Below, one piece after another: positions 7,236 through 59,606 of a DNA stretch of 59,606 nt (positions within the stretch are counted from its first letter, which is position 1; each line of letters opens with the position of its first letter). A program made the position numbers and the translations under genes. The notes under the pieces are model-generated. The model was not told the DNA's origin. It worked only from the letters and a program-made list of their open reading frames with translations, and searched no databases. The DNA is from Bacilli bacterium (GTDB lineage Bacteria > Bacillota_I > Bacilli_A > RFN20 > CAG-826), in the NCBI GenBank assembly GCA_024680795.1, contig JAILBR010000063.1, positions 1 through 59,606 of the forward strand, written 5' to 3'.

Positions 7236-7260
7236 AATAATCATTTGAGGAGGGAACAAC

Positions 7261-42551: not shown

Positions 42552-42716
42552 CTTTTTCAATAAATGCGTTTAAAAATTTTTAATCTTTTCGACATTGTTT
42601 AGACTACAATCAAAAAAAATCGCTTTTTTTCTTTCGATGTAATCAGCACTTTTTATATTTGTTGTTGTAATTAATTAGTAATTAAACTAGTATATATCTA
42701 GGATTTTTTGGAAATT

Positions 42717-43058
42717 ATGAAGAATAAAAAGATTTTATGGATCGCTCTTATCTCCCTTGATGTCGCTGTGACAGTATTCCTATTTGTCATTCACATCATC
42801 ATGTTAAGCAACATTATCGGTAAGACTCCAGAACAAGTTAATGAACTAACCGGCTTAGTTGGTACTCTTGCAAAGAACACCACTTTATACCTCTGTGCGT
42901 TTGTTATTCCTACATTCGTGATACTCGCTGCGAATATCGTTGGCTTAGTTATCTATGTCAGAAAACAAACCAAGAAAGAAGCTGTTAAAGTTGAGGACTT
43001 AACTGATGAACAAAAAGAAGCCCTCAAACAAGAACTTCTCAAAGATTTAAACAAGTAA
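42717..43058 (+). CDS. Hypothetical 2-TM membrane protein
   Basis: Two hydrophobic helices and a charged C-terminal helix; followed by a terminator. Confidence 0.7.
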   Translation: MKNKKILWIALISLDVAVTVFLFVIHIIMLSNIIGKTPEQVNELTGLVGTLAKNTTLYLCAFVIPTFVILAANIVGLVIYVRKQTKKEAVKVEDLTDEQKEALKQELLKDLNK

Positions 43059-43769: not shown

Positions 43770-43818
43770 ACTATCTAGTTTACTAGCGATTAAAATAATG
43801 TCCACTATTTCAATAAAC

Positions 43819-43852
43819 AAAAAAAGACCAACGGAGCAATTTCCATTGGTCT
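43819..43852 (-). terminator. Terminator closing the large operon
   Basis: Minus strand AGACCAATGGA...TCCGTTGGTCT followed by a T run, 13 nt after the EAL gene stop. Confidence 0.8.
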
Positions 43853-43865
43853 AGATATTATATAT

Positions 43866-46800
43866 CTATCTATTGTGGCTGATTAATGCACTGATGAAGT
43901 CCGCACGGGATAGAGGCTTATAGAAGTGATAACCTTGCATCATCATATTCTCATCGAAGTCACGTAAAATCGTGAATTGAGCGCTGTTTTCAACACCAAC
44001 GACTGAAACACCGATGCCGACTTCTTTCGCGTTAAAGACGATATCTTTAACTGCGTTAAATCTCGTGCCATCTGTATCGACCTTATAAATGAGGTCTCTA
44101 GCGATCTTGACTTCCTTAAATCCGAGTTCTTTAAGTTTTTCAACACCGATATATCGGCCGGTATATCTATCGACCGAGAACATGATGTGTGCACTACTAA
44201 GTTGTTGTGACATCTTTTGAATCTCATCGATATGGCTTGGAATAATCTCTTCTGGAATTTCAAATGATAGGAAGTTATTCGGGAATTTATAAGTATCATT
44301 AAGTTTGACGACACCTTGTAATAAGTTCAGGTCTTTTAAGTAGGTACTATCGACGTTAATTGCGATACGTTCAAGATTATTAATTTTGAATACACTATTT
44401 CCATATTCTTTATACATGTTACCGATGAAGTTGATAATCGCTTCGGTAATGAGGTTAGTCTTGCCTTCTTGCTCAGCGATACGAGAGATTTCTTCTGCGT
44501 TAAACATCGCGTTAGAATAGACGTTATTGATACGTAACAAGATTTCAGCTCCAAAGATCTTCTTATCTTTAGCCTTAACGATAGGTTGAAGATTAACACT
44601 AGAGAAGCTACCGGAGAATTCTTGTTCGATAACAGAAATGATGAATTCACGCTTAGAAGCACTTCTAGAAATCTTATGGTCATAGAAGTAAATGAAGTCT
44701 TTACCTCTTTCATGCTCGCCATGATGATAGAAGTCATTAACGTGCTTCATAAAGTCTTCGGCGTTCGCATAACCACTTGGCCATCTAAGTGGCAAATAAG
44801 TGAGCTTTAAAATGTCCTCGTTAGTGCCATCATCTAATAACTGTTTCTTTGAAAGTTCATAAATCTTTTCGCAAGTATTGATAACGTCAACGTGACCAAC
44901 ATTATGTAATAATAAGGCGATGCATTCGTTGTTATATGCATATAATTCGTCTGTGCCTAATTCATCTTTTAAGTTTCTTAAGAAACTTCTAATCGCGAAT
45001 AATGTGCCTTCACTACCTTGTTTTTCTAATAATGTTTCAATATTATCAATCGCTAATAAGAGGACATAGCCACGACCATTAACGTAATAGGAGTTACGGA
45101 TATTTTGATATAAGGCAAGATAAGAATTGATTAATAAGTCTTTATCGAATAAGTCACCGTTTAAATCACCTTGAGTTAGTCTTTCCACTAAAACAGAACG
45201 GATGCGACTCTTATGCTCATTTAAGGTTAAAGAGGCTTCATAATTGGCTTTACGATGGGTGAATTCTTTCTTTTTAAAAGTATGCATTGGACAGTCGCTA
45301 CAAGGCTTTTCTAATCCAAATAAGGCTTTATAACATAATTCCCCTTCTTTTAAGGATGGGAAGACAGTTTTTAAGTCTTTAGAGAAATACTTAAGTTCAT
45401 AGCTCTTATCATCGACTTTATATAAAGAGTAATCGGTTAAAGACATTAAATATTCGTTTTCATTACGATATTCTTCAATCGATTTATTCTTCTTAGTTAA
45501 TTCGAAATAATGTTTAACTCTTAAACAGATGATAAATAGTGATTCTCTAATATATGAATCGAGAATCAAATCTTTGTTATTTCTATTAAAGAAATAAATG
45601 ACTGCATCAATGTTATTTTCAATGCCGCGATAGACATAATAGAAGCCACTGCTGATACCATATAAATCTAAATCACGTCCAATATAGATGGAAGCATGTA
45701 ATCTCTTAGAGAAGAAATAAGAAGAATCAAAATCGGTAGCCTGGGCTAAAGAGCGAACAAAGTTACCATCCACCGCTTTTCCCTTAAATAGTTTAGAACT
45801 TTGGTTAGATAATAATTGAGTGTAAATACCAAGTTCATCATTATGAAAAATGATGCCGATATCATCGATATCGAGATAGTTGCCAAGATCGGTAAATAAA
45901 TCAGCGATCATCTTTTGGTCTTTAGCTTTTTGACCATAATCGTAAGTCAATTCATCGAGTTGATCTAATAAAGAAGACATGTAGTTAACATTCATCGCAT
46001 CAGAAAGCATTAAGCTCTTACCAGCGTTCTTCTTGATACGTTTTGGCATATAGAAGTTAACAACTTTGCCTTGTCTTTTCGCATATCTTAAGTCACTTAA
46101 TAATTCATCAACATCACTATAAGGGTAAGCGACAATCGCATATTTAGCGGAGATATATCTTAATCCTTCAAAGTCACGGATTGTTAAGCTGGAGTCACGG
46201 ATAACAGATATAATCTGTTCTTCCACTCTTGATAGAGAATCAATGACTGGTAAATAAATGAGTAAGGAGTTAATTTTCTCACGGTAAGCGAATAGCACTC
46301 CAGTATAATCACCAAATAAATCAGTGAAAACTTTGACTAAATATTTCTTATCGTTTTCATTTAAGGTTAATAAATCGACCGAGAAACTAACATCCACCAA
46401 AACATTACGGTAGCTTTGTGAAAGCATGATGATGTTTGGAAGTTCTTTTTCAAAAGATTCAAAAGTGACGATATTTAAATCTCGATCGACATATTGAAGT
46501 TTTAAATTGGAATAATCTGGCTTAGTAGTGATGATATAAGCACAATCGAATTTAGACTGTAAAACATCGATCTTATCGTTTAAATCATCGATTTCGTTAA
46601 CACCAGTTTTTGGATATTTATAAAATTTATAACTACCACTTAAGAAGCTATCATAGTTCTTTCTAGTGATAGTAAATAAAGAGTTATATTGGCTAAAATA
46701 TAGTCTTCTATATAAGTAGATGGAAACGATTACATAGGCAATCGCTAAAACTCCAGTAAAGACAAAGTATAAGATATAGAATACGCTTAATCCAGTCGAA

Positions 46801-46916
46801 ACATAACAAATCGCCATGATGATAGAAAGGATTAAATCGAAAGATAAAATCGAGACAGGAATAATAACAGTTTGTAACAAACTTTGTCTAATCGATACTT
46901 CTTTTTTATTCATCAT
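43866..46916 (-). CDS. Membrane-bound multidomain sensor: 2 TM, degenerate GGDEF-like, GAF-like, Cys-rich PAS-like, degenerate GGDEF, degenerate EAL
   Basis: LQPIV...GAEILLR, INVDS, FEIPE, VDRYTG (in place of DDFGTG), VVGVEN (in place of EGVE), MQGYHFYKP; CYKALFGLEKPCSDCP; the SD GGAGG supports the start at 46916. Confidence 0.8.
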   Translation of the reverse strand: MMNKKEVSIRQSLLQTVIIPVSILSFDLILSIIMAICYVSTGLSVFYILYFVFTGVLAIAYVIVSIYLYRRLYFSQYNSLFTITRKNYDSFLSGSYKFYKYPKTGVNEIDDLNDKIDVLQSKFDCAYIITTKPDYSNLKLQYVDRDLNIVTFESFEKELPNIIMLSQSYRNVLVDVSFSVDLLTLNENDKKYLVKVFTDLFGDYTGVLFAYREKINSLLIYLPVIDSLSRVEEQIISVIRDSSLTIRDFEGLRYISAKYAIVAYPYSDVDELLSDLRYAKRQGKVVNFYMPKRIKKNAGKSLMLSDAMNVNYMSSLLDQLDELTYDYGQKAKDQKMIADLFTDLGNYLDIDDIGIIFHNDELGIYTQLLSNQSSKLFKGKAVDGNFVRSLAQATDFDSSYFFSKRLHASIYIGRDLDLYGISSGFYYVYRGIENNIDAVIYFFNRNNKDLILDSYIRESLFIICLRVKHYFELTKKNKSIEEYRNENEYLMSLTDYSLYKVDDKSYELKYFSKDLKTVFPSLKEGELCYKALFGLEKPCSDCPMHTFKKKEFTHRKANYEASLTLNEHKSRIRSVLVERLTQGDLNGDLFDKDLLINSYLALYQNIRNSYYVNGRGYVLLLAIDNIETLLEKQGSEGTLFAIRSFLRNLKDELGTDELYAYNNECIALLLHNVGHVDVINTCEKIYELSKKQLLDDGTNEDILKLTYLPLRWPSGYANAEDFMKHVNDFYHHGEHERGKDFIYFYDHKISRSASKREFIISVIEQEFSGSFSSVNLQPIVKAKDKKIFGAEILLRINNVYSNAMFNAEEISRIAEQEGKTNLITEAIINFIGNMYKEYGNSVFKINNLERIAINVDSTYLKDLNLLQGVVKLNDTYKFPNNFLSFEIPEEIIPSHIDEIQKMSQQLSSAHIMFSVDRYTGRYIGVEKLKELGFKEVKIARDLIYKVDTDGTRFNAVKDIVFNAKEVGIGVSVVGVENSAQFTILRDFDENMMMQGYHFYKPLSRADFISALISHNR

Positions 46917-47652
46917 CGCTTCTACCTCCAAATAAGACGTCATTACGTCCGATATCGCCGATAGAGGAGACAACTGCCTTACCTAAAGATACATATTTGT
47001 CTAAGACAAATAAATATTTTTCGACATCCCAGCCTTTGCCTAATTCTTTTTCTACCACACGGATGGAAACGATTGGTACATCGTATAATTGTCCACTGAT
47101 CACCACTCCTCCAGTCGCGTTATCGACAGTCGCGGCTTTATCTAAATTGAGGAGTTCAAAATTATCTTTTATCTTTTCTAAGTTCGCGTTACTAAAATCA
47201 TTGCATGATAAGAAAGTGACAACTTTTGGGTTGATATAAGCACGTTTATTAAGTGCGTCACTTAAATAACCAATTAAGTCGTTTTGCACTTTATATTCAG
47301 GTCCAAAACCAGGAACTTGGCCTAAGACGACATTGTTATCGTTAATTTGATCAACATCAATATTAATCACTCGATTAGCGATCACAATATCTCCACTTTT
47401 TAATCCCTTGGTTAAAGAGACGCATCTTCCTACGACATAGGCTAAATCAATATGATAATGGTTAAAGATATAACTCGAAAGAGCAGAAGAAAGAATAGTT
47501 GTATAACAGCTATCAACGACAACAACTTCTTGGTTAAAGATAGTGCCGACGGAGATGACGTATTTTCTTAGTACCGTACTATCTTGACGGTTAGACATGA
47601 TGCTTTGAAAATATAAAACATCATCATGATTCGTACCAAAAATCGCAATCAC
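46906..47652 (-). CDS. MTA/SAH nucleosidase (PNP_UDP_1)-fold protein, probably catalytically inactive
   Basis: MIAIFG, LKSGDIVIA...IDVD...LGQVPG, DVPIVSIRVV match the MtnN layout; EME is DNA and SD is EK; GTG start overlaps the upstream TAG. Confidence 0.75.
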   Translation of the reverse strand: MIAIFGTNHDDVLYFQSIMSNRQDSTVLRKYVISVGTIFNQEVVVVDSCYTTILSSALSSYIFNHYHIDLAYVVGRCVSLTKGLKSGDIVIANRVINIDVDQINDNNVVLGQVPGFGPEYKVQNDLIGYLSDALNKRAYINPKVVTFLSCNDFSNANLEKIKDNFELLNLDKAATVDNATGGVVISGQLYDVPIVSIRVVEKELGKGWDVEKYLFVLDKYVSLGKAVVSSIGDIGRNDVLFGGRSDDE

Positions 47653-49199
47653 TATTGTCCCCTCTCTTTCTTTTCAAATTTGTTATTCTTTAAGAGTTCT
47701 TCAAATTCATTAAGTGGTAAAGGTTTGGAATAATAGAATCCTTGAATCGTATCGATATGCATTTTCTTTAAGATATCGACTTGTTCTTGACTATCAACAC
47801 CTTCGATGATGACTTCGATTTCATTTGTGTGACCTAATTCAGTTAAAAGTTTAACGATTGAACGAGTCTTCTCGTCTTCGACGAGTAAGTCAGAGAATGA
47901 TTTATCGATTTTAATCGCATCGAAAGGAATTTTTCTTAAGTTATCAATACCAGAATAACCAACACCAAAGTCATCCATCAAAACTCTAATACCGATATCT
48001 TTAAGTTTTTTAATGATGGAAATAGAGATAAATTGGTTAGCCTGACTGGTTGTTTCAGTAATTTCCACTTCCACGAGATGAGGTGGAACTTTATATTTAT
48101 CTAATAATTCTAAGACGTGATCAATAAAGCCAGTCGCGTAGAATTCATAAATAGAGAAGTTAACAGATACTGGGATAACTCTTCTACCTCTTTTAATCTC
48201 TTCTGATAAGTTCTTTAAAGCGAGTTCAAAAATATAGTTATCGATTAAAGAGATAAGACCAGCGGACTCAGCTTTGCCGATAAACATACCAGGAGTTAAT
48301 AAGCCATGTTTAGGAGAGTTCCATCTCGCTAAAGCTTCACAAGAGATGAACTTTCTCTCTATGAGAGAATATTTAGGTTGATAGTAGATGATAAATTCGT
48401 TGTTACGAAGGGCTTCTTCGATTTCATAGATATCATCTCTATTCGTTTCTTTTCTAAATGATTTATTGAAATATGTATAAGTTTCAAAGTTACTTTCAGC
48501 GACATTTCTAGCTAAGAAAGAGTCTTCAACCGCTCCCGTGATATTTTCGCCTTCAATGATTTCTTTAATGCCATAGAAAGGTTGAACATAAACTTTAAAG
48601 CTCTTCTCTTTCACGATTCGATAAACGTTACTAGAAATAGAATTGACGATTTCTGGAATTTTCTTCTCGTCATCACTAAATAGACAGAGCAAGAAAACTC
48701 CACGGTTAAAGCCATAGGCGTTATCCCTAGAAGAATAGGTACCTTTTCTTACGAAAAAGTCTTCTAAGAATAATGAAACGTTATAGTTAAGATTCATCAT
48801 CATATCACTATTAAAGCTATTAGAAGCAACCTTTAAACTGGTGCAGCTAAAGGCAATGATAAATTGTCTTCTCTTTTTAAGTCTTCTTTTTTTAGATAAA
48901 AATGAGACTCTAGTTTTAAATGCTTCAAGATTATAGAAAGTAGTTTTATGACCTAAGGTATAGCTATTTTCCATCTCTAATGTTTTAAAGAAACGACCTT
49001 GAGTGAAGAACTGTTTAAGAGACTCAGTTAAACCAATCGAAGAAGCAATAGCGAATATAATAATTAAAACTTGCCATAATTCATGACGTTCCGCCTTATT
49101 GTTAACAGAGATTAAAATAGCCGCAGTAAAAGATAACACTAAAGCGATAAAACAAATGGAAGCAAGAATTAAGTAGCGATATAAGGCTCTATTTTTCAT
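47652..49199 (-). CDS. Membrane-bound c-di-GMP phosphodiesterase (2 TM, degenerate GGDEF, intact EAL)
   Basis: YYQPK, EALARW, VSVNFS, EVEITET, MDDFGVGYS, KIDKSF, IEGVD, IQGFYYSKP. Confidence 0.92.
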   Translation of the reverse strand: MKNRALYRYLILASICFIALVLSFTAAILISVNNKAERHELWQVLIIIFAIASSIGLTESLKQFFTQGRFFKTLEMENSYTLGHKTTFYNLEAFKTRVSFLSKKRRLKKRRQFIIAFSCTSLKVASNSFNSDMMMNLNYNVSLFLEDFFVRKGTYSSRDNAYGFNRGVFLLCLFSDDEKKIPEIVNSISSNVYRIVKEKSFKVYVQPFYGIKEIIEGENITGAVEDSFLARNVAESNFETYTYFNKSFRKETNRDDIYEIEEALRNNEFIIYYQPKYSLIERKFISCEALARWNSPKHGLLTPGMFIGKAESAGLISLIDNYIFELALKNLSEEIKRGRRVIPVSVNFSIYEFYATGFIDHVLELLDKYKVPPHLVEVEITETTSQANQFISISIIKKLKDIGIRVLMDDFGVGYSGIDNLRKIPFDAIKIDKSFSDLLVEDEKTRSIVKLLTELGHTNEIEVIIEGVDSQEQVDILKKMHIDTIQGFYYSKPLPLNEFEELLKNNKFEKKERGQ

Positions 49200-50124
49200 T
49201 GTCTTTCTTCTCCTTTGATTTATTTAGCATCTCTTCTAATAACTCTTTCTTTAGACGTTCTCTATCTTTATTAGATATTTTATCTAATGATTTCACACTA
49301 CCCTTAGTTTCTGTCACTGGAGCTTCTTCTGCATCTTTTAAGGCTCTTAAGATATCAATAATCGAGGTAATAATTAGATAGGCAGCTGGGATAAGTAAGA
49401 AGATTAATAATCCAATTGGACTAGATAGAATCTTAAATACTTGTCCTAAAAATGGGGAATTAACTTTCACCACTCCTAAAAGTTGTTCGTAAGTAAGAAT
49501 TTGATATTGTTCTTTCTTACGATAGCTTTCTCCACCTTCTTCTCCTTCAGTGGTATTAATACCAGCAGTCACGAAATAATATTTTCCTTCGATTTGATGA
49601 ATTTCGAAAAGTCTATGGGTCATGACTTGGTTAGAGACAACTTCGCTCCAATTGTTTTGCCAATCAGGGTTATCACGTGGGCATACACTCGACCAACTTC
49701 TATTATTCATAAAGGTTAAGTCGATTTTCGCATTCGCTCCTCCATTACTATTGAAGCGATTAACGATATCTTCTTCTTTTTCTAGATAGGTGACGATTGC
49801 GGTGTTAACTGGATATTCAGGCTCCATAGAATCAGTTAAGACCACGAAACTACCGAATCCTAATCTAATTTGTTGGTTATAATGCTCTTTCGCATGCACC
49901 ATTCCATCGATTTGGCCAACTAAAACGATGACAAAGAAGACGCCAAAGATACCAGTTAAGATCCATTCGATAATCACTCTGGCCTTGCTCTTCTTCTTTT
50001 TCTTCTTTTTACCTGTTTCTTCAACATTTTCAGTAACCACTTCGGTTGGGGTTACTTCAGGATTAGGAAGAGATTCGTTATTATTTTGTTCTTCGGTTAT
50101 TTCAACTTTTTCTTCGTCGATCAT
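49189..50124 (-). CDS. sipW: SipW-type (S26B/Sec11-like) signal peptidase I
   Basis: TM, then FVVLTDSMEP (Ser), VMTHRL (His), GVVKVNSPFLG and a C-terminal TM (GLLIFLLIPA). Confidence 0.8.
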   Translation of the reverse strand: MIDEEKVEITEEQNNNESLPNPEVTPTEVVTENVEETGKKKKKKKSKARVIIEWILTGIFGVFFVIVLVGQIDGMVHAKEHYNQQIRLGFGSFVVLTDSMEPEYPVNTAIVTYLEKEEDIVNRFNSNGGANAKIDLTFMNNRSWSSVCPRDNPDWQNNWSEVVSNQVMTHRLFEIHQIEGKYYFVTAGINTTEGEEGGESYRKKEQYQILTYEQLLGVVKVNSPFLGQVFKILSSPIGLLIFLLIPAAYLIITSIIDILRALKDAEEAPVTETKGSVKSLDKISNKDRERLKKELLEEMLNKSKEKKDNEK

Positions 50125-52790
50125 AATTTAACAATCTTACCTCCTAACTCTTTTTTTATTTTCTTAGCGAGATTATAGTCGTCAAACACATGAGCGTCTT
50201 CTTTCATCTCACTAAAGTTATCTTTGGATACATAATATCCGCTTAAAGTCTTCACAATAAATCTGCCTGGAATTGGTTCTTCTTTGACCTTCTCCCTAGG
50301 TTTACGTTCTTTTTTAGTCGTCTCAGAGGCAGTTTTTTCCTCCTTCTCCATAGGAGAAGAATTCCCCTCTTTTTCTTCATTATCTTCTAAAACATCATCA
50401 TTAGAAGCGTTTACTTCTTCATTTATAGGTCCTTGTTCTTGAGATTGTTCATCATTAGATTCTTCTTGTTGAGGTTCATCATTTTTAACCCACATTTCGT
50501 TTTGTGGTTGTTCTTCCTCTGCCACTTCTTCTTGAGGATTATCTTCTTGAGTTGGAACTTCCTCTACTGGTTGTTCTTCCACTTTTTCTTCTTCAGGTTG
50601 AATTCCTTCCTCTACTGGTTGTTCTTCTTGAGGTTGAACGTCTTCGCCATTATTTTCTTCTATAACAGAATTTTCTTCTTGCGGTTTCTCTTGAGATGGT
50701 TCTTCATCAATATTTTCTTCTTGAGGTTGTTCTTCGGATAGAACTTCTTCTTCCACTGGTTGTTCTTGAATTTGTTCCTCACTTAAAACATCATTAGAAG
50801 CTTCTTCTTGTGCAGATTCCTCTTGTTGAGGTTGTCCATCGACTGGTTGCTCTTCTAGAGATGTTTCTTCTTCAGCTGATGTATCTTCTACTTGAGCATT
50901 TGATTCTTCATTCAAAGGCTCTTCTTGAACTTCAGAAGGTTGTTTTTCACCAATAGGAGATTCCTGAACTTCCTCTTGAGGCTCTTCTACTTCAGGAGCA
51001 GGTTGCTCTTCCTCTTGTTGAGGTTGTTCTTCCTTAGCTGGTTCTTCAGAAACGTTTTCTTCTTGAACTTGTTCATTTTCAGAAGGTTGTTCTTCTAAGA
51101 TAGACTCTTCTTGAGGTTCATTATTAACGCTTTCGATTTCTTTATTTTCTTCGACCTGTTCTTCTTTTTGAGGCTTGCTTAAAATAGGCTCATCTGGTTT
51201 ATTTTCTACTGGAGCTTCTTTCTTTTTACGGCCTCTCTTCTTTTCTTCTTTTGGAGCAACTTCTTCAGTTTTTTCAACTGGTTCATTTATAACTGGTTCA
51301 ACTGGAAGAGGTTGTTCTTCTGACTGATTTTGAGGTTGTTCTTGAGGAGCAGGCTCTTCAACAGGTTTTTGTTTTTCTTTTTGAACTTTATATTTTTGCT
51401 TTTTCGCTTCTTTATCTTTTTTGGCTTGCTCTTTAACGATTTGTTTTTCGCCTTTCGCAGCAGCGATAAGTTCTTGTCTCTTCTTTTCAATACGAGCAAG
51501 TTCTTCGTTAGCGATAGCCATCAAACGTTTTTCTTCTTCAGCGCGATCTTCTTCAGCAAACACTTTCAAAAGTTCTTGGACATATTTTTCCCAGTTGTCG
51601 TTTTCTCTGATCTTTCTTCTAAGAAGTTTTTCAATCTCTTGGAGTTCCTTCTTACGAGTGGCTTTTAATTTATATTCACCTTGATAATATAGTTTTTCAT
51701 ATTTATCAGGGTGTAAAGGCAAGCCTAAATGACCGAGATTATCTAAATATTTACGGTATTCTTCATCTACTCGGACAAATTCTAAAGTACCGGTTAAAGG
51801 TTCACCGAAAGTAAATATCTCATCATCAATACTGGTCATCACTTTTGGTTTATGAGTTTTAGAGACAGTTTTGATGTCTTTCATTTCTGTTTCTGTCTTT
51901 AAAGACAGATATTCAGTTAAGAATAGATAATTTAATTCCGCTAAATCTTCGTCTGTAAAGTTTTTATAAGCTTCATCTACTTTATAATTCACACCTAAAG
52001 AAGAGAATCTTTCGATAAATAATAAAGTTTTATAACAGTGATGATATTTAGGGTTCTTTCTGATGATGTTAGTTTGTAAGATTGGTTTACGAACATCTCT
52101 TTCGTTTTTGAGTTTCTTCATGAATGGAGAATTATAGTAATAGAAAATATATTCTCTCATCTTTAAGATACGGTCGATATAGCCTTGGCTTTTAATCGCA
52201 ATATCATCATCAGTTTCTTTTTTAACTCTGATTTTGGTTTCGATTTCTACTTCTTCTCCACCGACTTGAGTGTTGGTTTTTAAATACATCACTTCTTCCA
52301 TATGGAGAGGAATCATTCTTTGAATATATTCATATCTCTTTTCTACGAATAACACTAAACGTCTAATGAAAGTAGCGATAAATCTATTTTCATAAGTGTT
52401 CATATTATCTTCGTTAGAGTGAGATAAGATTTTAGAAGGGACAACATTATTTTGTTCGTCGACTTCTTTAATATATTGAGTGTGGCTTGCTAAATGTTGA
52501 ACGCTTTCCCCATCAATTTTTTTAGCAAGTTCAACAGGGACAACATTACTTTCTTGTTTAGTGACTTGTTTTGGGTTATTAACGATTTCACCAAGGTCAT
52601 ATAAACAATCTTCCACAACATCAATCCAAGATGAATCAAATAAGGAAGATTCATAACGATGGTAGCGTAAGAAAGAATTCTTTCCTTTTAAGAAAGAAAG
52701 GTAGATATCGTCAAAAGTTTTATCTTTATTCAAAGAAGAAACTTTATCGAGATATTTATAAAAAAGTTGTTTCTTAGTCGCTTTTGCCAT
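50121..52790 (-). CDS. DUF2357/McrC-N-like protein with coiled coil, long acidic disordered region and small C-terminal domain
   Basis: IVNNPK, VQHLASH, PSKIL..DNMNTYENRFIATFI, TNIIRKNPKY; lies directly downstream of the McrB-like gene. Confidence 0.65.
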   Translation of the reverse strand: MAKATKKQLFYKYLDKVSSLNKDKTFDDIYLSFLKGKNSFLRYHRYESSLFDSSWIDVVEDCLYDLGEIVNNPKQVTKQESNVVPVELAKKIDGESVQHLASHTQYIKEVDEQNNVVPSKILSHSNEDNMNTYENRFIATFIRRLVLFVEKRYEYIQRMIPLHMEEVMYLKTNTQVGGEEVEIETKIRVKKETDDDIAIKSQGYIDRILKMREYIFYYYNSPFMKKLKNERDVRKPILQTNIIRKNPKYHHCYKTLLFIERFSSLGVNYKVDEAYKNFTDEDLAELNYLFLTEYLSLKTETEMKDIKTVSKTHKPKVMTSIDDEIFTFGEPLTGTLEFVRVDEEYRKYLDNLGHLGLPLHPDKYEKLYYQGEYKLKATRKKELQEIEKLLRRKIRENDNWEKYVQELLKVFAEEDRAEEEKRLMAIANEELARIEKKRQELIAAAKGEKQIVKEQAKKDKEAKKQKYKVQKEKQKPVEEPAPQEQPQNQSEEQPLPVEPVINEPVEKTEEVAPKEEKKRGRKKKEAPVENKPDEPILSKPQKEEQVEENKEIESVNNEPQEESILEEQPSENEQVQEENVSEEPAKEEQPQQEEEQPAPEVEEPQEEVQESPIGEKQPSEVQEEPLNEESNAQVEDTSAEEETSLEEQPVDGQPQQEESAQEEASNDVLSEEQIQEQPVEEEVLSEEQPQEENIDEEPSQEKPQEENSVIEENNGEDVQPQEEQPVEEGIQPEEEKVEEQPVEEVPTQEDNPQEEVAEEEQPQNEMWVKNDEPQQEESNDEQSQEQGPINEEVNASNDDVLEDNEEKEGNSSPMEKEEKTASETTKKERKPREKVKEEPIPGRFIVKTLSGYYVSKDNFSEMKEDAHVFDDYNLAKKIKKELGGKIVKL
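50290..51370 (-). repeat. Low-complexity coding repeats (EEQPVEE/QPQEE)
   Basis: Recurrent (c)tactggttgttcttc and ttcttgaggttg units encoding Glu/Gln/Pro-rich repeats. Confidence 0.7.
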
Positions 52791-52804
52791 AAGTCACTTT
52801 CTAA

Positions 52805-54328
52805 CTAGTTATTCTTTAATAAGTTTTCAATATAAGAATGAGCCATATGGAAATTGCCTTTGCCATATAACTTATCTAAATATGTATCAAGTTCTTTTAA
52901 TTGGTCTTTTAAGAAGGCGATATTTAAGGATTCAAATTTCTTTAAAATCTTGTTAGTGAAAATGAAATCAAATCCATCACTTTCAGTACCACCACAAGCG
53001 ATAAATGTTGGGATGAAGTCATCTAATTGTTTTAAAATACGGTTACCAAAGGCCAATCTGAATTTCTTAATAACAAAGTTATCAAGGTCTTCAAATTTCT
53101 TAAGCATATCCGCGGAGATGCCATATTGCTTTTTAGCTTCTGCAAATAAGGAAACTAGTTGAGCGTAAGGAACACTGATTGGTTCAGTTTCTACCGCGTC
53201 AAATGGTCTTCCTTTATCATCGAAGAACAATGAGATAGCACGGTCATAAACCTTATCAGCGATGGTAAATGTTGAGTCATCGTTATTCGCTGTTCCGAAG
53301 AAGTAGACGTTTTGAGGAATTAATAACTTACCTTCTTTGAGGTGTTTTGGATCACTTGGGTCAATAGAAGGAATTAAGTCAATTGTCCAGTCTTCAAAGT
53401 CTCTTTTTTCCATGACGGATAAGAATTCAGCGAAATAATATTCAATACGGGCTAAGTTCATTTCATCGAGGACGATGATATCTAAGTCTTTACGGTAGGT
53501 AGTGACATATAACGCTTTTAAGAATTCAGATTCGTTGAATTTCTTAGTGAATTCGTTATAGTAACCTAAAAGTTCACTTCTATCTTTCCATGATGGTTGG
53601 ACAGGAATGATTTCGCTATCAAATGAGAAGAATTTACCAAGGGCGTACGCTAAAGAAGTTTTACCAGTACCAGAGATACCTTCTAAGATGATGAGTTTTG
53701 AGGTTGCTAAGCCAGCGAATAATTGTCTAATAACATCAATACGGTAATATAGGCCTAATTTACTAGCAGCGTAGTTTCTAAAGCTATTACATAACTCTTC
53801 TAATGATAAACCCTCTTTAAACATGATCGCGGTATTCACGTCTTCATAAGCTTGGTCAACACGGGTAAGTTTTGGGAATCTAGAAGAGATTTGATCGATA
53901 ACTTCTTGATCTTCTTTTTGATAAGCACCTTCTTCAGGTTTTAAACCCATATAACCAGTCTTTAAGTTTAAGATTTTATCTTTTTCTTGAATGGCTTGAT
54001 ATAATTCGTAGTTAAGTCTTTCGACTTGATTTCTTAGTTCATCTTTATCGAGTTCTTTTCTGACAAATCTCACATATTTTCTTATTAATAAGAAAAGTCC
54101 GTATAAAATCGCACCAATTAAACCGATAAAGAAAAGTAAGAAGATAACCCAGAAGAACCATCCCCAGAAACCAAAAGTACCATTATAGGCGCCAAAAATG
54201 GAGTTGTAATTATCAAAATTGCCTGGCACTCTTTCCCAAGGTTTTACCCAAGCAGTATTAAGGAAAACACCGAGGTCTGTAAAGAAGGCCACAAGTAGTT
54301 CACGTAAGTAATTAAAGTATGCTTCCAT
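52805..54328 (-). CDS. McrB-like AAA+ GTPase/ATPase with N-terminal transmembrane anchor and coiled coil
   Basis: ILEGISGTGKT, IPVQPSWKD.SELLGYYN, LDEMNLARIEYYFAEFLS, FFGTANNDDST..IADKVYDRA; TM WGWFFWVIFLLFFIGLIGAILYGLFLLI. Confidence 0.88.
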   Translation of the reverse strand: MEAYFNYLRELLVAFFTDLGVFLNTAWVKPWERVPGNFDNYNSIFGAYNGTFGFWGWFFWVIFLLFFIGLIGAILYGLFLLIRKYVRFVRKELDKDELRNQVERLNYELYQAIQEKDKILNLKTGYMGLKPEEGAYQKEDQEVIDQISSRFPKLTRVDQAYEDVNTAIMFKEGLSLEELCNSFRNYAASKLGLYYRIDVIRQLFAGLATSKLIILEGISGTGKTSLAYALGKFFSFDSEIIPVQPSWKDRSELLGYYNEFTKKFNESEFLKALYVTTYRKDLDIIVLDEMNLARIEYYFAEFLSVMEKRDFEDWTIDLIPSIDPSDPKHLKEGKLLIPQNVYFFGTANNDDSTFTIADKVYDRAISLFFDDKGRPFDAVETEPISVPYAQLVSLFAEAKKQYGISADMLKKFEDLDNFVIKKFRLAFGNRILKQLDDFIPTFIACGGTESDGFDFIFTNKILKKFESLNIAFLKDQLKELDTYLDKLYGKGNFHMAHSYIENLLKNN

Positions 54329-54332
54329 AATT

Positions 54333-55448
54333 TTAAATCTCCATGTCTCTATAGATTCTAAAGCTTAATCCAGCTTTGAATCCTGCACCCATCACTTGAT
54401 TGACTGAATCTAAATCCCATCCTTCGATATATAAGGCGACACCGACTTTAGTTGGGGTATTAGCCTTAACTGGAAAAAAGAATTTGACATCGCTTTGTTT
54501 AAAGTCTTCTGGGATATAACGTTGTTCTTTAGCGATTTCCACTCCATTAGCAAGTGATTGTTCTAAGTTGAACCTCTTCACACCAGCTTCATGGCTAGCG
54601 TTGAAGACATTTGGTTCTCCTTCATATGTTGAATCTGCATCAAACGCTTCATCATATATGATTTTGCTACGGTCATTGACCTCACCATACACCACTTCGA
54701 ATTTTTCATCGTTTTTGTTGTAATGGTCATATTTATGATTGAAGGTGTTATCAAGAATTCCTCCTAATAGCACTTCTTCTTCATTATGATTTGGATCAAC
54801 GACTGCGTAATCGTAATTTCCTTCATCGTTTTCACAAAGTATAGAAAATCTCATCGCGTTAGGTAAGTTTGCTAATCTCTCTCTGATTTCTTCCTCTGTG
54901 TGAACGATAACATTTTCATTTTGCTCATGTCTTTTTATCTCGTCTTCACGCACTTCTTGCGCGTACGCGTTATTAAAAAGAGCATTTTGCTTGATGTATG
55001 TGGCGGATTCTTCTGTATCATCCGCTTTGATGGTCACATACACATTATCTTCACTAAAGAGATAGACTTCTTGATAAAAATATCCACCATGAGACTCGAC
55101 AAGTCGAGGGGTGCCATATTCGTCAAAAGGCACTAATGTGGTATAGGAGCTATCATAAAATATCGGTTCGTTATGGCCTTCGACATTTAACCAATTATTT
55201 TGGTACATAGTCGATACAGGAAAATAACGTTGTACTTCGTGTAATTCGTCGTATGATAACTCTTCTTTAAAAGAATCTAAATCTGTTGAGGTAGAAATGA
55301 GAAGTTCTCTATCACCATCAAGTCTAATATCAATAGCCTCGATAGCGAGCCTGTTACTTGCAGAATACCAAGCTAGAGAGACAGAAACTGCATTAAGCGC
55401 GATTAACCCTGTTAATAAACCAATAAGGATAATCTTGTTTGCTTTCAT
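54333..55448 (-). CDS. Secreted protein with SipW-class signal peptide (fibre subunit paralog 4)
   Basis: Signal ending VSLA|WY; FPVST, AMRFSI, VVYG, ALYIEGWD, terminal FKAGLSF. Confidence 0.7.
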   Translation of the reverse strand: MKANKIILIGLLTGLIALNAVSVSLAWYSASNRLAIEAIDIRLDGDRELLISTSTDLDSFKEELSYDELHEVQRYFPVSTMYQNNWLNVEGHNEPIFYDSSYTTLVPFDEYGTPRLVESHGGYFYQEVYLFSEDNVYVTIKADDTEESATYIKQNALFNNAYAQEVREDEIKRHEQNENVIVHTEEEIRERLANLPNAMRFSILCENDEGNYDYAVVDPNHNEEEVLLGGILDNTFNHKYDHYNKNDEKFEVVYGEVNDRSKIIYDEAFDADSTYEGEPNVFNASHEAGVKRFNLEQSLANGVEIAKEQRYIPEDFKQSDVKFFFPVKANTPTKVGVALYIEGWDLDSVNQVMGAGFKAGLSFRIYRDMEI

Positions 55449-55450
55449 TT

Positions 55451-56578
55451 CTAAACTTTGTTAATTTCAAATTGTAAACCGAGGTTGAAACTATATCCTG
55501 CCGCTTCATCGATCACGACATGATCCCAACCTTCTAAAAATATTGTTAATGTGGAATATCCAATCGCTATTTCACTATTGGCAGTGATTGTGACTGGCAT
55601 ACCACCAGAATAGCTATTACCATCATAATCTGGGAATACTGTTCTTTTTGTTTCGTATTCGGCTACTCCACGAATTACTGAATTCATATTGGCAGTGAAA
55701 ATATCTTTCAAGTGACGAGAACAGAACGTAGTTCTGCCGGTATCACCAGTGCCATTAACAGTACCATCATTTGGAGCGCTTGCTGGATCAACTGCATAGC
55801 CAGTATCACTATGTGTTAATGTGCCACTTGCAATTTCTCCATAAACATACTCTTTGCGAGTACTTGGATTGTAGTCATAAAATCCATCTCCGTTTAAGTC
55901 TAAAGGACCACAAACAGAAGTTTCGCCTGCAACTGCTTCATTTGAGCTAGGATTAAACAAATATCTCGTATCATTTGTTACATCATCAATAAATACACGT
56001 AGGGCTTTATCAATATCATGTCCTGAGGCTGCTGTTTCAGTTGAAGTAATCCATATCTCTTTTTGTTTAACAGGGCGTTCTTGATTATCTAGAACCCTAA
56101 ATGCAAATGGAAGTACTAAGTAGTTCTTAAGTGCAGCAGGATTCTTAACTCTATATTCTCCATCTTCTGTACTACATTCTGGGGCTTGATAAAGAGTTAA
56201 ATCATCATCACCACTTCTAGCTAAACTAGAAACAGGGGAAAGTTTATTAATAGCATAAGATGTGTTATCTAAATAGGCTCTAATCATGTCGCTGGTAAAA
56301 CCAGTAGCAGCACGATTCCAGACGATTTTATGGCCATCAACTGTTTGTTTGGTGAGATTAAATGTCGAGATTTCTTCATTAGTGAAGTATTCGTCATCAT
56401 CAACAAGACCAACTTCTAGTTGAACAGAACTACGAACTGCAGTTCCGGTAAAAGATAGTCTAACTGCTGAGTTATATGCGTACCAAGCAAGAGTCCCTGC
56501 GATGGAACCAACAAATCCAAGTAGCGTCAATGCAGTGGATCCAGCAACGAATAGATTAATCTTTTTAGATAGTCTCAT
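55451..56578 (-). CDS. Secreted protein with SipW-class signal peptide (paralog 3)
   Basis: GTLA|WYAYN; LSPVS, ALRVFI, GPLDLNGDG, IFLEGWD, FNLGLQF. Confidence 0.75.
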   Translation of the reverse strand: MRLSKKINLFVAGSTALTLLGFVGSIAGTLAWYAYNSAVRLSFTGTAVRSSVQLEVGLVDDDEYFTNEEISTFNLTKQTVDGHKIVWNRAATGFTSDMIRAYLDNTSYAINKLSPVSSLARSGDDDLTLYQAPECSTEDGEYRVKNPAALKNYLVLPFAFRVLDNQERPVKQKEIWITSTETAASGHDIDKALRVFIDDVTNDTRYLFNPSSNEAVAGETSVCGPLDLNGDGFYDYNPSTRKEYVYGEIASGTLTHSDTGYAVDPASAPNDGTVNGTGDTGRTTFCSRHLKDIFTANMNSVIRGVAEYETKRTVFPDYDGNSYSGGMPVTITANSEIAIGYSTLTIFLEGWDHVVIDEAAGYSFNLGLQFEINKV

Positions 56579-56650
56579 GCCAACCTCCTTTCCCCTGTAA
56601 TATTTATTATTAAGATATGAAAATTTTTGTTAGATTAAATGATGAAATAA

Positions 56651-58264
56651 TTATTTGTTGAAGGCATCTTTGCCGACATCAAATGTCATACCGAAACGGA
56701 AACCAGCTCCGTCAGTATTTTCTCCACTCCAAGTTGGAACTTCGATATTTCCAAATGAAGTAAATTTGTAATATGTTTTTTCATTATGAGCGAGGTTATT
56801 TCCGCTTGCTTTGATGTAGTTGCCATTAGCATCTTGTGTGTAGAACTTGCTAACATCTTTGCTACCAGCTGGTAACCAATTACCAAGAGCGTCTTGTAAT
56901 TCGGTTGTAACCACTTCTGCATTTTCACCAGCAGACTTTTTGACATAATATGTCTTGCCCGCTAATGCTTTATGATTTGCATCCATATCATCTACTGTAA
57001 CTGCAAGATAGTTATCACCATCTTTTATAAACATAGCAGAAACATCTTTTGCAAATTGAATATTTGCAGTTTCGTTCTTGACGATTCTTGTAAAGTACTT
57101 AGTGCCATCAACAGCGAGTTTTTCGACTTCTAAGTTGACCTTTTCATGATTCAAACCATTTAACTTATAAGTATCAGCCGGAATAATTGCACCAACATCT
57201 AACTTTAATGGTCTGTAATGCAATGAGAAGTAAGATTTCTCAGGATCAGCTTTGCCGGTAGCGGCTTCATAGTCGCCATGTCCATCTTCAATAAAGTATC
57301 CTTCCACATTTTGTGGTTGAACATCATAAGAAGGAATGTAGACAATTTCGTTTGATTCGATGGTTTGACTATCTAAATCCATATCCCATCCTTCAAACCA
57401 AAGTGTCACTGTAACTTTTGAGAAACCAGTTTCTGATGTATGGAATAAGACTTTATCCATATTGGAAACATCCCATTCGTCATAGTTATCGTTAACTCTT
57501 GTAGCAACTAAATCGCTTGCTTTTTTAGCGGTTTGGTATTCACCTTCATTACCATAGACAACTTGCTTGTCACGGTTAGCGTTACCTTCGTAACCACCTT
57601 TGCGATCAGCTTTTTCATCTCCATCTAAGTCTAAAGCGCCAAATAACTCTAAGTTTTCGACACCGTTCTTAGAAAGTAAGAGATTTTTGTTAACAGCACC
57701 ATCGCCTTCATCATCGATTGCTAAGTGAACTCTTAAGCCATCGATGATTGAGCCTGCGCCTGCTTCTACATAATTTTCTAATAAGAAGTTAGATAAGAAT
57801 ACAGGAACTGACACTTGTTTCAAACCATTGCCAGTATTTTCAACATCCATTGCTCTGAATTCAACAGTGTATTGGATGTAATCATGCTCTTTATCAGCTT
57901 GTTCATAAACTTCATCATAACTACCAAGATTAGTAGCATATGCGTTTTCTGAAGCATCTGGGTTTTTATAAGCTTGATCTGGTAATTTATCATTTGCTTC
58001 AAGTTTACCAAAGGTAACAGGAGTAATAAGGGCTTTATTCTCACGTTCGCCGATTAAATCAGCGGTGATGAGATCTCTAGTCCATTCGCCTCCTTGTTTT
58101 CTTATTTGTAAGATTCCAGTTTCAGCAACACCAGTGCCAATCACGGTTGTACTGACTCTAGTATTGTATTGGAACCAAGCAAGAGTTCCACTTAACGCCG
58201 CAACGAAAGATAAAGCTGCAGCAGTTGATAACGAAGAAACAACAAGTTTTTTGCTAATTTTCAT
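56651..58264 (-). CDS. Secreted protein with SipW-class signal peptide and repeat insert (paralog 2)
   Basis: SD AAAGGAG before MKISKK at 58264; GTLA|WFQYNT; DYIQYTV, GLRVHL, GALDLDGD, LWFEGWD, FRFGMTF. Confidence 0.78.
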   Translation of the reverse strand: MKISKKLVVSSLSTAAALSFVAALSGTLAWFQYNTRVSTTVIGTGVAETGILQIRKQGGEWTRDLITADLIGERENKALITPVTFGKLEANDKLPDQAYKNPDASENAYATNLGSYDEVYEQADKEHDYIQYTVEFRAMDVENTGNGLKQVSVPVFLSNFLLENYVEAGAGSIIDGLRVHLAIDDEGDGAVNKNLLLSKNGVENLELFGALDLDGDEKADRKGGYEGNANRDKQVVYGNEGEYQTAKKASDLVATRVNDNYDEWDVSNMDKVLFHTSETGFSKVTVTLWFEGWDMDLDSQTIESNEIVYIPSYDVQPQNVEGYFIEDGHGDYEAATGKADPEKSYFSLHYRPLKLDVGAIIPADTYKLNGLNHEKVNLEVEKLAVDGTKYFTRIVKNETANIQFAKDVSAMFIKDGDNYLAVTVDDMDANHKALAGKTYYVKKSAGENAEVVTTELQDALGNWLPAGSKDVSKFYTQDANGNYIKASGNNLAHNEKTYYKFTSFGNIEVPTWSGENTDGAGFRFGMTFDVGKDAFNK

Positions 58265-58342
58265 AACTTGTCTCCTTTCGGTTATGTATGTAGTATGTGC
58301 GCTATATAAATATAGCAATTAAATATTAATTATTAATGATGA

Positions 58343-59500
58343 TTAAGCTTTGAATGCATCAGAAGATACATTAAATGTCATACCTAATTGGAATTTTGCT
58401 CCATCAGTATTTAAGCCACTCCACATTGGGACGGTGACAGCGGCATTCTTTGTGTAATAATATGATTTACCATCAGCTTTTGATCCAGCTGTTAATGCAG
58501 CAGTTGCAGCATAACGATCTGCATATTTTCCTTCAACATCAGATTCAGCAGCTGGTTTTTCAGCAGTAATGTGTTGGATTTCTTTTTGTAAGTTAGTGCT
58601 GTTTTCCCAACCTTCTAACCAAACTGTAACAACTAATTTAGAAGCATGGTCAGCGGTTGTAGGTGTAGTGACGATCAATTTACCAGCATCATCTGTAATA
58701 ACACCATTTGCGTCAGGTGTATTGATTAATGATGATGGAGCAATTGTTGTTTGAGTACGTGTATCTGTACCATATGTGACAACATCATCTCTATTAGCAG
58801 ACCATTCATAACCACCAATTCTATCAGCGATGCCGTCATCATCGCAGTCTAATTTGCCGAATAATGGGAGAGCAGCTTTTGCTGTTTTAGAAATCAAATA
58901 ATTTCTATCAGGCGAGACCGAAGTAGAATCATCGTAACATGCGATGTGAACTCTTAAACCTTCAGCAATAACACCAGAATCGACATTGTTTAATACGAAG
59001 TCTGTTAAATAGACTTTTTCAGCAGTTAATGTGAATCCACCAGTTGCATTATCAACAGTTCTGCCTCTTAAGTAGACAGTATATTGAATGTAATCAGTTG
59101 CGACTGCAGCTTGATAAACATCTGCGTATGCGCCAGGAGCATGTCCTCCTCCAGCGTCTTTTGCTGCTCTATTTAGAGCAGAGTTTGGGTTTTTATAGGC
59201 AGTACCTGATAAAGCACTGGAAGCGGTTTGATTTGCACCAGTTTCCCATGTGATTGGGGTAATGTTTAAATCAGTAGCAATGCCTAATTCTGAGGATGTT
59301 AAATCTCTTTTAAATCCTGTAGTTGCGCTTGTAGCACTGATATCAAGAACACCAGTTTCAGCAACGTTCATGCCGATTAAAGATGTTCTAACAGCGGTAT
59401 TGTATTGGTACCACGCAACAGTACCGGAAATCGCGCCAACTAATGACACGCCTAATGCGGTTGACAAGGAAGAGATAATAATCTTTTTACTAATTTTCAT
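58343..59500 (-). CDS. Secreted protein with SipW-class signal peptide (paralog 1, Ala/Thr-rich)
   Basis: GTVA|WYQYNT; DYIQYTV, GLRVHI, GKLDCDDDG, VWLEGWE, FQLGMTF. Confidence 0.78.
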   Translation of the reverse strand: MKISKKIIISSLSTALGVSLVGAISGTVAWYQYNTAVRTSLIGMNVAETGVLDISATSATTGFKRDLTSSELGIATDLNITPITWETGANQTASSALSGTAYKNPNSALNRAAKDAGGGHAPGAYADVYQAAVATDYIQYTVYLRGRTVDNATGGFTLTAEKVYLTDFVLNNVDSGVIAEGLRVHIACYDDSTSVSPDRNYLISKTAKAALPLFGKLDCDDDGIADRIGGYEWSANRDDVVTYGTDTRTQTTIAPSSLINTPDANGVITDDAGKLIVTTPTTADHASKLVVTVWLEGWENSTNLQKEIQHITAEKPAAESDVEGKYADRYAATAALTAGSKADGKSYYYTKNAAVTVPMWSGLNTDGAKFQLGMTFNVSSDAFKA

Positions 59501-59606
59501 ATGCGTTTATTTCAACTCCTAATTTTAATTTTGCACTTATAGGTGCTTCTTCTTCGATACTGGATTGAGGATCCCATCCTTCAAGCCAGAAGACGATTGT
59601 GTACCT
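59490..59606 (-). CDS. C-terminal fragment of a fifth paralog (5'-truncated by window edge; absent from ORF track)
   Basis: Manual translation RYTIVFWLEGWDPQSSIEEEAPISAKLKLGVEINAYEN*; the stop overlaps the next start by 11 nt. Confidence 0.8.
   Translation of the reverse strand, partial: RYTIVFWLEGWDPQSSIEEEAPISAKLKLGVEINAYEN

Follow-up and report, generated by a model that had tools for sequence, protein, structure and literature searches.

Signal peptidases of the endoplasmic reticulum (ER) type that are encoded together with the surface proteins they process are known from the tapA-sipW-tasA operon in Bacillus subtilis and from the camelysin (CalY) loci in B. cereus. In Clostridioides difficile, riboswitches for cyclic di-GMP (c-di-GMP) control pilin and adhesin genes. 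The locus described here, an eleven-gene operon of a Bacilli bacterium of gut or rumen (contig JAILBR010000063.1 of assembly GCA_024680795.1), recalls both arrangements and adds to them a pair of McrBC relatives. Five secreted paralogues (termed subunits, sub0 to sub4) are followed by a membrane-anchored McrB-like GTPase (B), a DUF2357 (McrC-like) protein (C), a SipW-like peptidase and two EAL-domain proteins (EAL1 and EAL2) with a divergent MTAN-like protein between them. The window, i.e. the whole stretch of DNA analysed (59,606 nucleotides, nt), is the entire contig, and the operon occupies its final 15.8 kb; the assembly has a size of 1.33 Mb and a completeness of 74%.

With the tapA-sipW-tasA and CalY loci the operon shares a dedicated ER-type peptidase encoded with its substrates, a similar motif at the end of the signal peptide, and an accessory or anchoring subunit next to the main ones. 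Unlike those loci, which have no NTPase, it belongs to a system with a near-constant GTPase pair; its subunits have no significant match past the signal region and its host is probably wall-less. The placement of an aptamer directly upstream of surface-structure genes is as in C. difficile, where the targets are type IV pili and sortase substrates, whereas those of the system studied here are SipW substrates joined to McrBC relatives. McrBC type IV restriction itself (E. coli; PDB 6hz4, 6ut6, 7vsr) has the same AAA+ GTPase core with a DUF2357 (McrC N-terminal) partner, but in our locus a membrane anchor replaces the DNA-binding domain and the PD-(D/E)xK nuclease is undetected. Loci of the TasA superfamily (AbpA, AbpX, Tafi; bioRxiv 10.64898/2026.01.04.697558) combine signal peptidase I with tip, minor and anchor components and, in Bacteria, also with c-di-GMP enzymes; the words ATPase and GTPase are absent from the available text of that preprint, in contrast to the GTPase of the window system.

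The closest described system is CoCoPALM. Within the McrB GTPase branch carrying the NxD signature, Bell et al. (eLife 2024, PMC11090510) distinguish a large clade, named CoCoPALM, in which the GTPase is fused to an FtsB-like transmembrane (TM) plus coiled-coil domain; their main text covers it in one paragraph and defers its study to a later paper. The shared features are an NxD McrB-like GTPase with an N-terminal TM segment and coiled coil, a coiled-coil McrC homologue encoded next to it, and associated genes of the signal peptidase family. Judged from sequence, the window locus has three of the four features stated for CoCoPALM, the remaining one being FtsB homology. An initial reading of this DNA made without database searches (the sequence-only reading) had known of no description of the gene combination. 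That claim has to be withdrawn, as CoCoPALM is already named in section 7 of PMC11090510, although a literature search yielded no description of the combination beyond the CoCoNuT paper and its preprint. The locus is a real, conserved member of CoCoPALM, a named but unexplored system. New beyond the name are the subunit family, the core gene order, the lack of a detectable nuclease in the McrC-like protein and the riboswitch input: the main text on CoCoPALM (as distinct from its supplements) contains neither a subunit family, nor an anchored-plus-cleavable pair, nor riboswitches, nor an EAL/MTAN-like/EAL tail. As to function, we consider it fairly probable that this CoCoPALM operon serves a multi-subunit surface structure, most likely a fibre, with Sec-exported paralogues that SipW releases from an N-terminal membrane anchor and with B and C as an obligatory pair at the cytoplasmic face.

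Conservation of the gene combination

A scan of one genome per species returned at least 589 loci with relatives of B. The best 80 were fetched and, one of them being without an open reading frame (ORF) call, 79 were compared, their ORFs being labelled by hidden Markov models (HMMs) built iteratively from the window proteins. A second set comprised 16 loci cut from relatives' genomes of the order; at least two records occur in both sets (L053 is L028, and L048 is L042), and the relatives are non-independent. C directly follows B in 76 of the 79 loci. SipW adjoins B or C in 73 (the SipW-like gene of the window lies two genes downstream of B), and subunit genes are present in 71. The set of four is complete in 65 loci, and the other 14 are mostly short contigs. 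EAL genes occur in 40/79 loci and the MTAN-like gene in 12/79. Within the order, B relatives were found in 37 of 61 genomes (the own genome included), and the gene order is the same in 11 of the 16 loci from relatives' genomes; the succession of subunits, B, C, SipW, EAL, MTAN-like and EAL is repeated within the genus and in another family. Five genomes of the same genus that are without B have the sub3 type in no case (0/5) and SipW in two (2/5).

The commonest core consists of an anchored subunit without the A-W-[FY] motif, at least one cleavable subunit, SipW, B and C, often with a second SipW; a run of anchored and then cleavable subunits stands upstream of SipW-B-C in 21 loci. The EAL/MTAN-like/EAL tail is limited to one well-supported clade of a quick B tree (23 of its 81 rows, including the window). 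The loci are labelled 'Bacilli bacterium', 'uncultured Erysipelotrichaceae', Acholeplasma, Paracholeplasma and Izemoplasmatales, and further Oscillospiraceae, Ruminococcus, Christensenellaceae and Lachnospiraceae, with a few labels clearly mis-binned.

These data bear directly on whether an McrBC-like pair could have been inserted by chance in an unrelated SipW operon. Paralogous B-C pairs without SipW or subunits do exist in relatives (L037, L040, L041 and L043). These lone pairs, however, have other N-termini and an identity (35-45%) limited to the GTPase domain, and the adjacency of SipW recurs under various taxonomic labels and in several separate clades of B, which leaves chance adjacency with hardly any probability. 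The link that the sequence-only reading had drawn between the McrB/DUF2357 pair and a cluster of SipW and secreted proteins thus extends over Bacilli, Acholeplasma-type and Clostridia metagenome-assembled genomes (MAGs). That reading had itself named a pair found mostly away from the SipW cluster as an outcome that would refute the link, and the opposite was found, with SipW beside the pair in 73/79 loci.

Proteins of the conserved core

As a single sequence, B matches AAA_5 (5.3e-6) and McrB NF008457 (1.5e-5) weakly; among solved structures, a profile of 81 B relatives finds only E. coli McrB (1e-6). A hydrophobic segment (residues 50-86) and a charged heptad-rich segment (~87-125) precede the AAA+ domain, which begins at ~200, and no DNA-binding family was found at the N-terminus, where the membrane segment and coiled coil stand instead. 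The Walker A (GISGTGKTS) and Walker B (VLDEMN) motifs and residues T346, N348, D350 and D351 of the signature T346-A-N348-x-D350-D351, which is of the NxD type of the CoCoPALM GTPases, are invariant across the 81 sequences, position 349 being variable. In an ungapped HMMER alignment D351 lies opposite the Asp of the E. coli NTAD motif, leaving the acting Asp ambiguous from sequence. B is also the most conserved protein of the operon (73-76% identity within the genus). It looks like an active GTPase because of the motifs invariant in 81 sequences, the highest conservation in the operon and the McrB profile match. A search for longer, fused forms of B showed no fusion with SipW. One 1088-aa metagenome protein (P0272) joining C-, B- and subunit-like parts has them in an order opposite to that of the operon and is probably an assembly chimera.

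The McrC homologue with a coiled coil that adjoins the GTPase in CoCoPALM is present in the window as C. The full-length protein has no Pfam match; without its acidic tail it matches DUF2357 at 7.9e-8 (32.3 bits vs a cut-off of 23.3), and DUF2357 was detected in 60 of 81 C members. The protein comprises a DUF2357 domain (~36-290), one long helix (370-469) and an acidic tail rich in Glu, Gln and Pro (471-835), of which 34% is Asp plus Glu. The AlphaFold2 (AF2) model (pLDDT 86.4) has an alpha/beta domain, disorder at 320-341 and, after residue 370, nothing but the one long helix (370-469). Residues 36-287 superpose on a 289-aa DUF2357-only protein (TM 0.64/0.75), and the 30 nearest Atlas clusters are all DUF2357. 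The best match in a PDB profile search with C was a myosin coiled coil (0.19). No nuclease family, including the PD-(D/E)xK feature of McrC, was found in the family scan of the 81 C members, and no other family recurs among them, the neighbours outside the six labelled families being unscanned for nucleases. From sequence and model, C appears to be an McrC-like protein with no detectable nuclease domain. Behind its acidic tail, the last 55 aa (50121-50285) form a small domain, IPGRFIVKT...GGKIVKL, that is kept in near relatives only (L029, L042, L045 and L048) and is diverged in L049.

The descent of this pair raises the question of a defence or conflict system, in which a sensor of McrBC descent would detect foreign nucleic acid and act through remodelling of the surface or through secreted effectors. 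B falls in the branch to which, according to the main text of PMC11090510, the predicted RNA-targeting CoCoNuT systems also belong; in PADLOC, the GTPase domain of B has a match to the candidate PDC-M26A (4.2e-41), and fast evolution of the subunits would also suit a conflict. On the other hand, no nuclease family was found in the 81 C proteins, neither C, SipW nor the subunits have a PADLOC match, the neighbours are housekeeping genes (PNPase, RNase J, FtsK), none of 287 plasmid matches covers 80% of B (0/287), and c-di-GMP riboswitches and EAL genes are part of the wiring of the system. We regard a role in defence as quite unlikely.

The SipW-like peptidase matches SipW NF046067 at 7.8e-9, under the family cut-off, and its profile finds human SEC11C (5.5e-21) and SEC11A (about 1e-20). 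Ser99 and His170 are invariant in 65 sequences, while the Asp of the GDN box is present in 40 of the 65 and replaced by I, V, T, K or N in 25. Of these 25 Asp-less peptidases, 24 are the copy encoded downstream of C, with Ser and His retained; judging by sequence, such a copy could be a second peptidase that has diverged, or else a paralogue that holds substrates. The operon gene is the sole SipW-type gene in three genomes of the same genus (94-95% complete), and a separate LepB-type peptidase is encoded elsewhere in the genome. Many of the SipW-like tails carry a conserved charged cytoplasmic helix of the form (E/K)RLKxELLxEM, and the combination of charged peptidase tails with the coiled coils of B and C suggests a contact between them. 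A complex prediction from alignments for B (1-507) and SipW (40-311), for which controls were not run, scored 0.00 against a mark of 0.32 and gave no answer.

A similar tail is found outside the operon. On the plus strand of the window (42708-43058), a 116-aa membrane protein ends in the C-terminal tail EQKEALKQELLKDL, which resembles the charged tail of the operon peptidase, and it is solely through this tail that the protein scores against the SipW HMM (3.8e-10). A counterpart is encoded elsewhere in the assembly (C61:1873-2334).

The secreted proteins are, as far as sequence comparison can tell, a single fast-evolving family with signal peptides that appear to be of the SipW class. Their paralogy, noted in the sequence-only reading, is upheld by the matches of sub1 with sub2 (3.5e-57, 42% identity), sub1 with sub3 (4e-10) and sub4 with sub3 (3e-9). 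In sub1 to sub4 the N-termini are alike (a K-rich part, a hydrophobic stretch and G-[ST]-x-A-W-Y), and [LIV]-E-G-W-[DE] near the C-terminus is followed by a final strand. The truncated sub0 aligns at 51-71% identity with the C-terminal ends of proteins of 267-330 aa from relatives, where its equivalent is a TM-anchored subunit without the A-W-[FY] motif and with a c-di-GMP-I riboswitch in front. The fastest-evolving pair includes sub1 (identity within the genus 30-34%). For sub3, a search of 1.84 billion proteins gave 333 representative relatives at E<=0.001. The subunits can be taken as one family because the sub3 profile aligns with the 200-330-aa subunits of distant loci (hhalign 99.1%, E 1.2e-18). 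The signal consensus in 279 family matches is a K-rich part, a hydrophobic stretch and T-[AG]-T-[YF]-A-W-[FY], an A-W-[FY]-type signal motif being present in 128 of the 279 HMM matches. The top NCBIfam family is TIGR04088, 'SipW-dependent-type signal peptide' (7/72 subunits, best 7e-4), the only other curated family touched being Peptidase_M73; none of the four full subunits of the window matches a family at E<=0.01. For sub3, the AF2 model (pLDDT 90.5, pTM 0.86) shows an N-terminal helix (2-36), a beta-rich body and a low-confidence stretch past the predicted cleavage site (residues 31-50, pLDDT 54-59).

A search of 201 genomes for true Peptidase_M73 proteins gave only 6 matches, all over at most the first 76 profile positions (the signal-peptide end). 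On a 2257-bp contig of the own genome (C17:13-2167), an anchored-type subunit (318 aa) adjoins one of the A-W-Y type (398 aa, with VEGWD); this pair marks a second, fragmentary locus of the family, only one B gene having been found in the 74%-complete assembly.

The cell envelope of the host adds to this picture. Among 24 genomes of the family, many with a completeness of 94-99%, FtsW/RodA (PF01098) was found in none; among genomes of other families of the order it was found in 8 of 16. The own genome has one Mur_ligase_M match. By gene content, the lineage is probably without a peptidoglycan wall. Any fibre would be held by the membrane alone because FtsW/RodA is found in 0/24 family genomes, and this fits the anchored subunit.

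The same absence can be turned against a fibre. The secreted paralogues may form no fibre at all and be proteins of the surface or coat that SipW processes, such as adhesins or an S-layer-like cover around a wall-less cell, with B and C acting as a regulatory GTPase switch or as quality control of their release from the membrane. The subunits of the window are large (371-537 aa vs 200-330 aa in most loci), and other genes of the own genome that are under riboswitch control and carry the same signal include ~1500-aa proteins that are adhesin-like rather than pilin-like. Nevertheless, sets of minor and major subunits typically look like the present arrays, in which 2-7 paralogues include one anchored member and have their terminal strands in common (W-x-E-G-x-D, then a final strand), and the low pLDDT past the cleavage site of sub3 is what is expected of a donor strand without its partner. 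Overall, we think a non-fibrous coat unlikely and continue with the multi-subunit fibre as the preferred reading.

Cyclic di-GMP input and operon layout

Aptamers of the c-di-GMP-I class (RF01051) were found in 20 of 33 distinct related loci scanned on the operon strand, with scores of 46-74 bits against a gathering threshold of 35. They are present in 7/7 loci of a first set of the window's clade and in 5/6 of a second (L048 being dropped as a duplicate of L042), which amounts to 12/13 for this clade overall; a mixed Bacilli/Acholeplasma-type set has them in 5/7 loci, and two largely Clostridia-labelled sets in 1/6 and 2/7. For 20 of the 27 aptamers, a subunit gene follows at a distance of less than 400 nt; one aptamer precedes SipW and one an EAL gene. 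In four loci of the same genus (L028, L029, L030 and L042), a first subunit gene with a terminator of its own comes before the aptamer, and sub0 after it. The aptamer of L028 (7259-7342) has a promoter-like site (7226-7253) ahead of it, and its 3' strand is at the same time the left arm of a terminator, the pairing partner being a complementary stretch further downstream with a U-run behind it (-24.3 kcal/mol, z -4.42). The riboswitch of this one locus looks, by its sequence, like an ON switch, because the terminator arm is the 3' end of the aptamer, so that the ligand should prevent termination.

EAL1 and EAL2 match the EAL family at 4.9e-63 and 1.3e-31 (in listed order). The catalytic motifs of EAL1 look intact against those that we take to define the active site, while the EAL domain of EAL2 is degenerate (DDFG to DR, EGVE to VGVE), making this protein a candidate c-di-GMP receptor. 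The MTAN-like protein matches TIGR01704 at 1.2e-12, its 47.9 bits comparing with a cut-off of 73.8. Control by c-di-GMP, originally read from the EAL genes of the window, is backed by EAL genes in 40/79 loci together with the c-di-GMP-I riboswitches of relatives.

The own genome has 12 genes with GGDEF domains and no match to PilZ. The assembly contains four other c-di-GMP-I aptamers, two of which precede genes for proteins with the same signal type. At C45:12279-23502, two tandem units each consist of an aptamer (12279-12357 and 17989-18064), a 311- or 325-aa protein (GAFAWF signal) and a ~1500-aa protein (ATASWF signal), and look like a second set of surface proteins controlled by c-di-GMP. 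Twelve GGDEF genes and four c-di-GMP-I riboswitches in 1.33 Mb represent a heavy investment in c-di-GMP by a small genome.

The features of the operon are listed in the table. All eleven genes lie on the minus strand (59606 to 43866), with an overlap of 11 nt between sub0 and sub1, gaps of 78 nt (sub1/sub2), 72 nt (sub2/sub3), 2 nt (sub3/sub4), 4 nt (sub4/B) and 14 nt (B/C), and overlaps of 4 nt (C/SipW, ATGA), 11 nt (SipW/EAL1), 1 nt (EAL1/MTAN-like, TAGTG) and 11 nt (MTAN-like/EAL2). No hairpin above chance was found in the 78-nt and 72-nt gaps after sub1 and sub2 (z -0.15 and -0.09), and the terminator at the operon end is the best on the minus strand (-19.2 kcal/mol, z -4.72, 0/200 shuffles as stable). 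Coordinates and fold are in accord with the sequence-only reading as to the eleven same-strand genes, their junctions and the single strong terminator (43852-43825), and family and profile matches show its assignment of the individual genes to families to have been accurate. Downstream of the operon lie housekeeping genes (GNAT, PTS EIIC, PNPase, RNase J, FtsK).

Table. Genes and terminator of the operon, with positions in the 59,606-nt window
Feature	Position	Strand	Description
sub0	59490-59606	-	3' end only, 38 aa/codons, truncated at contig end; terminal WLEGWD motif
sub1	58343-59500	-	secreted subunit, 385 aa; N-terminal signal GTVAWYQYN, C-terminal WLEGWE
sub2	56651-58264	-	sub1 paralogue, 537 aa; longer insert preceding C-terminal segment; ATG at 58264
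sub3	55451-56578	-	subunit, 375 aa; GTLAWYAYN and FLEGWD motifs
sub4	54333-55448	-	subunit, 371 aa; SLAWYSASN and YIEGWD motifs; directly upstream of GTPase gene
B, membrane-anchored McrB-like GTPase	52805-54328	-	507 aa; AAA_5, McrB NF008457
C, DUF2357 (McrC-like) protein	50121-52790	-	889 aa, without membrane segment
SipW-like ER-type signal peptidase	49189-50124	-	311 aa, two TM segments
EAL1, membrane-bound EAL phosphodiesterase	47652-49199	-	EAL family match
Divergent MTAN-like (PNP_UDP_1) protein	46906-47652	-	MTAN TIGR01704
EAL2, large membrane sensor	43866-46916	-	1016 aa, C-terminal EAL domain
Intrinsic terminator, operon end	43815-43852	-	stem 43852-43825 and T-run

Two bovine-gut metatranscriptome runs contain 0.10 and 0.06 of the sampled words, and their contigs, 90-99% alike and probably from related strains, touch 25/30 and 21/30 window bins. 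Single contigs span sub4/B (54107-54659), B/C (52464-52829) and EAL1/MTAN-like (47627-47910); these may derive from DNA, and transcription across the junctions is unproven.

Proposed working of the locus

Taken as a CoCoPALM operon for a fibre, the locus might work as follows. At high c-di-GMP, the P1 stem of the aptamer would stay closed, as in the relatives, the terminator would be blocked, and transcription would run from sub0 to EAL2; for this step the aptamers were detected in relatives and the ON direction is suggested by a single locus. The subunits would insert through their signal anchors, and SipW, if TasA and camelysin are a guide, would cleave T-x-A|W-[FY] behind its invariant Ala. 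The freed N-terminal segment would then serve as a donor strand, and the chain would grow on the motif-less TM anchor of the sub0 type. B, presumably a hexamer, would have the DUF2357 domain of C as its plug, in the manner of McrBC, and its GTP hydrolysis at the membrane may gate or organise processing, assembly or anchoring. Finally, EAL1 would lower c-di-GMP as feedback, while the degenerate EAL2 may sense it.

Several points weigh against this scheme, beginning with its fibre part. Sequence links between the subunits and TasA/camelysin are weak and confined to the signal-peptide region: Peptidase_M73 (PF12389) matches 3/72 subunits, in their N-terminal part only, PDB profile searches with the subunits found nothing (best uL23 at 0.086 and Vps3 at 0.52), and their nearest named Atlas cluster scores 0.83. 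The Asp of the GDN box is needed in SipW and Sec11, and the SipW-like peptidase of the window has GIN, with Ile in its place. As to the GTPase, TasA and archaeal bundling pili need no NTPase to our knowledge; conserved adjacency is what connects B and C with fibre work; and FtsB/DivIC models matched none of 10 N-terminal fragments of B, the best hit being FtsL_2 in one fragment (E 0.039). As to regulation, riboswitches are rare among Clostridia-type loci, the window ends inside sub0 ahead of any aptamer region, and a tblastn search of the assembly for the upstream continuation of the operon gave only the window's own end.

A motor role of the GTPase in fibre assembly is thus something that we infer. 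The broadest form of the idea, that a membrane-anchored, McrBC-derived GTPase ring with a McrC-like plug devoid of its nuclease is the energy-using core of a new machinery, one that couples GTP hydrolysis to the SipW processing, assembly or anchoring of TasA-like donor-strand fibres and is switched ON by riboswitches, we put forward tentatively and consider rather doubtful. Should it hold, such machinery would have a wide distribution among the Bacillota of gut and rumen and among wall-less relatives. If the GTPase pair does act on the fibre, the motor of a restriction enzyme would have been turned into a device for assembly at the cell surface, and TasA-type fibres, thought to be energy-free in assembly, would gain an NTP-driven variant. 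The riboswitch link provides an experimental handle, as c-di-GMP can be raised and the operon and the cell surface watched. Overall, the locus adds a subunit family, a core gene order and a regulatory input to a system that has existed so far as a name. With at least 589 loci in one species-level genome collection, this system occurs commonly among MAGs of rumen and gut, where it may shape adhesion and biofilm formation.

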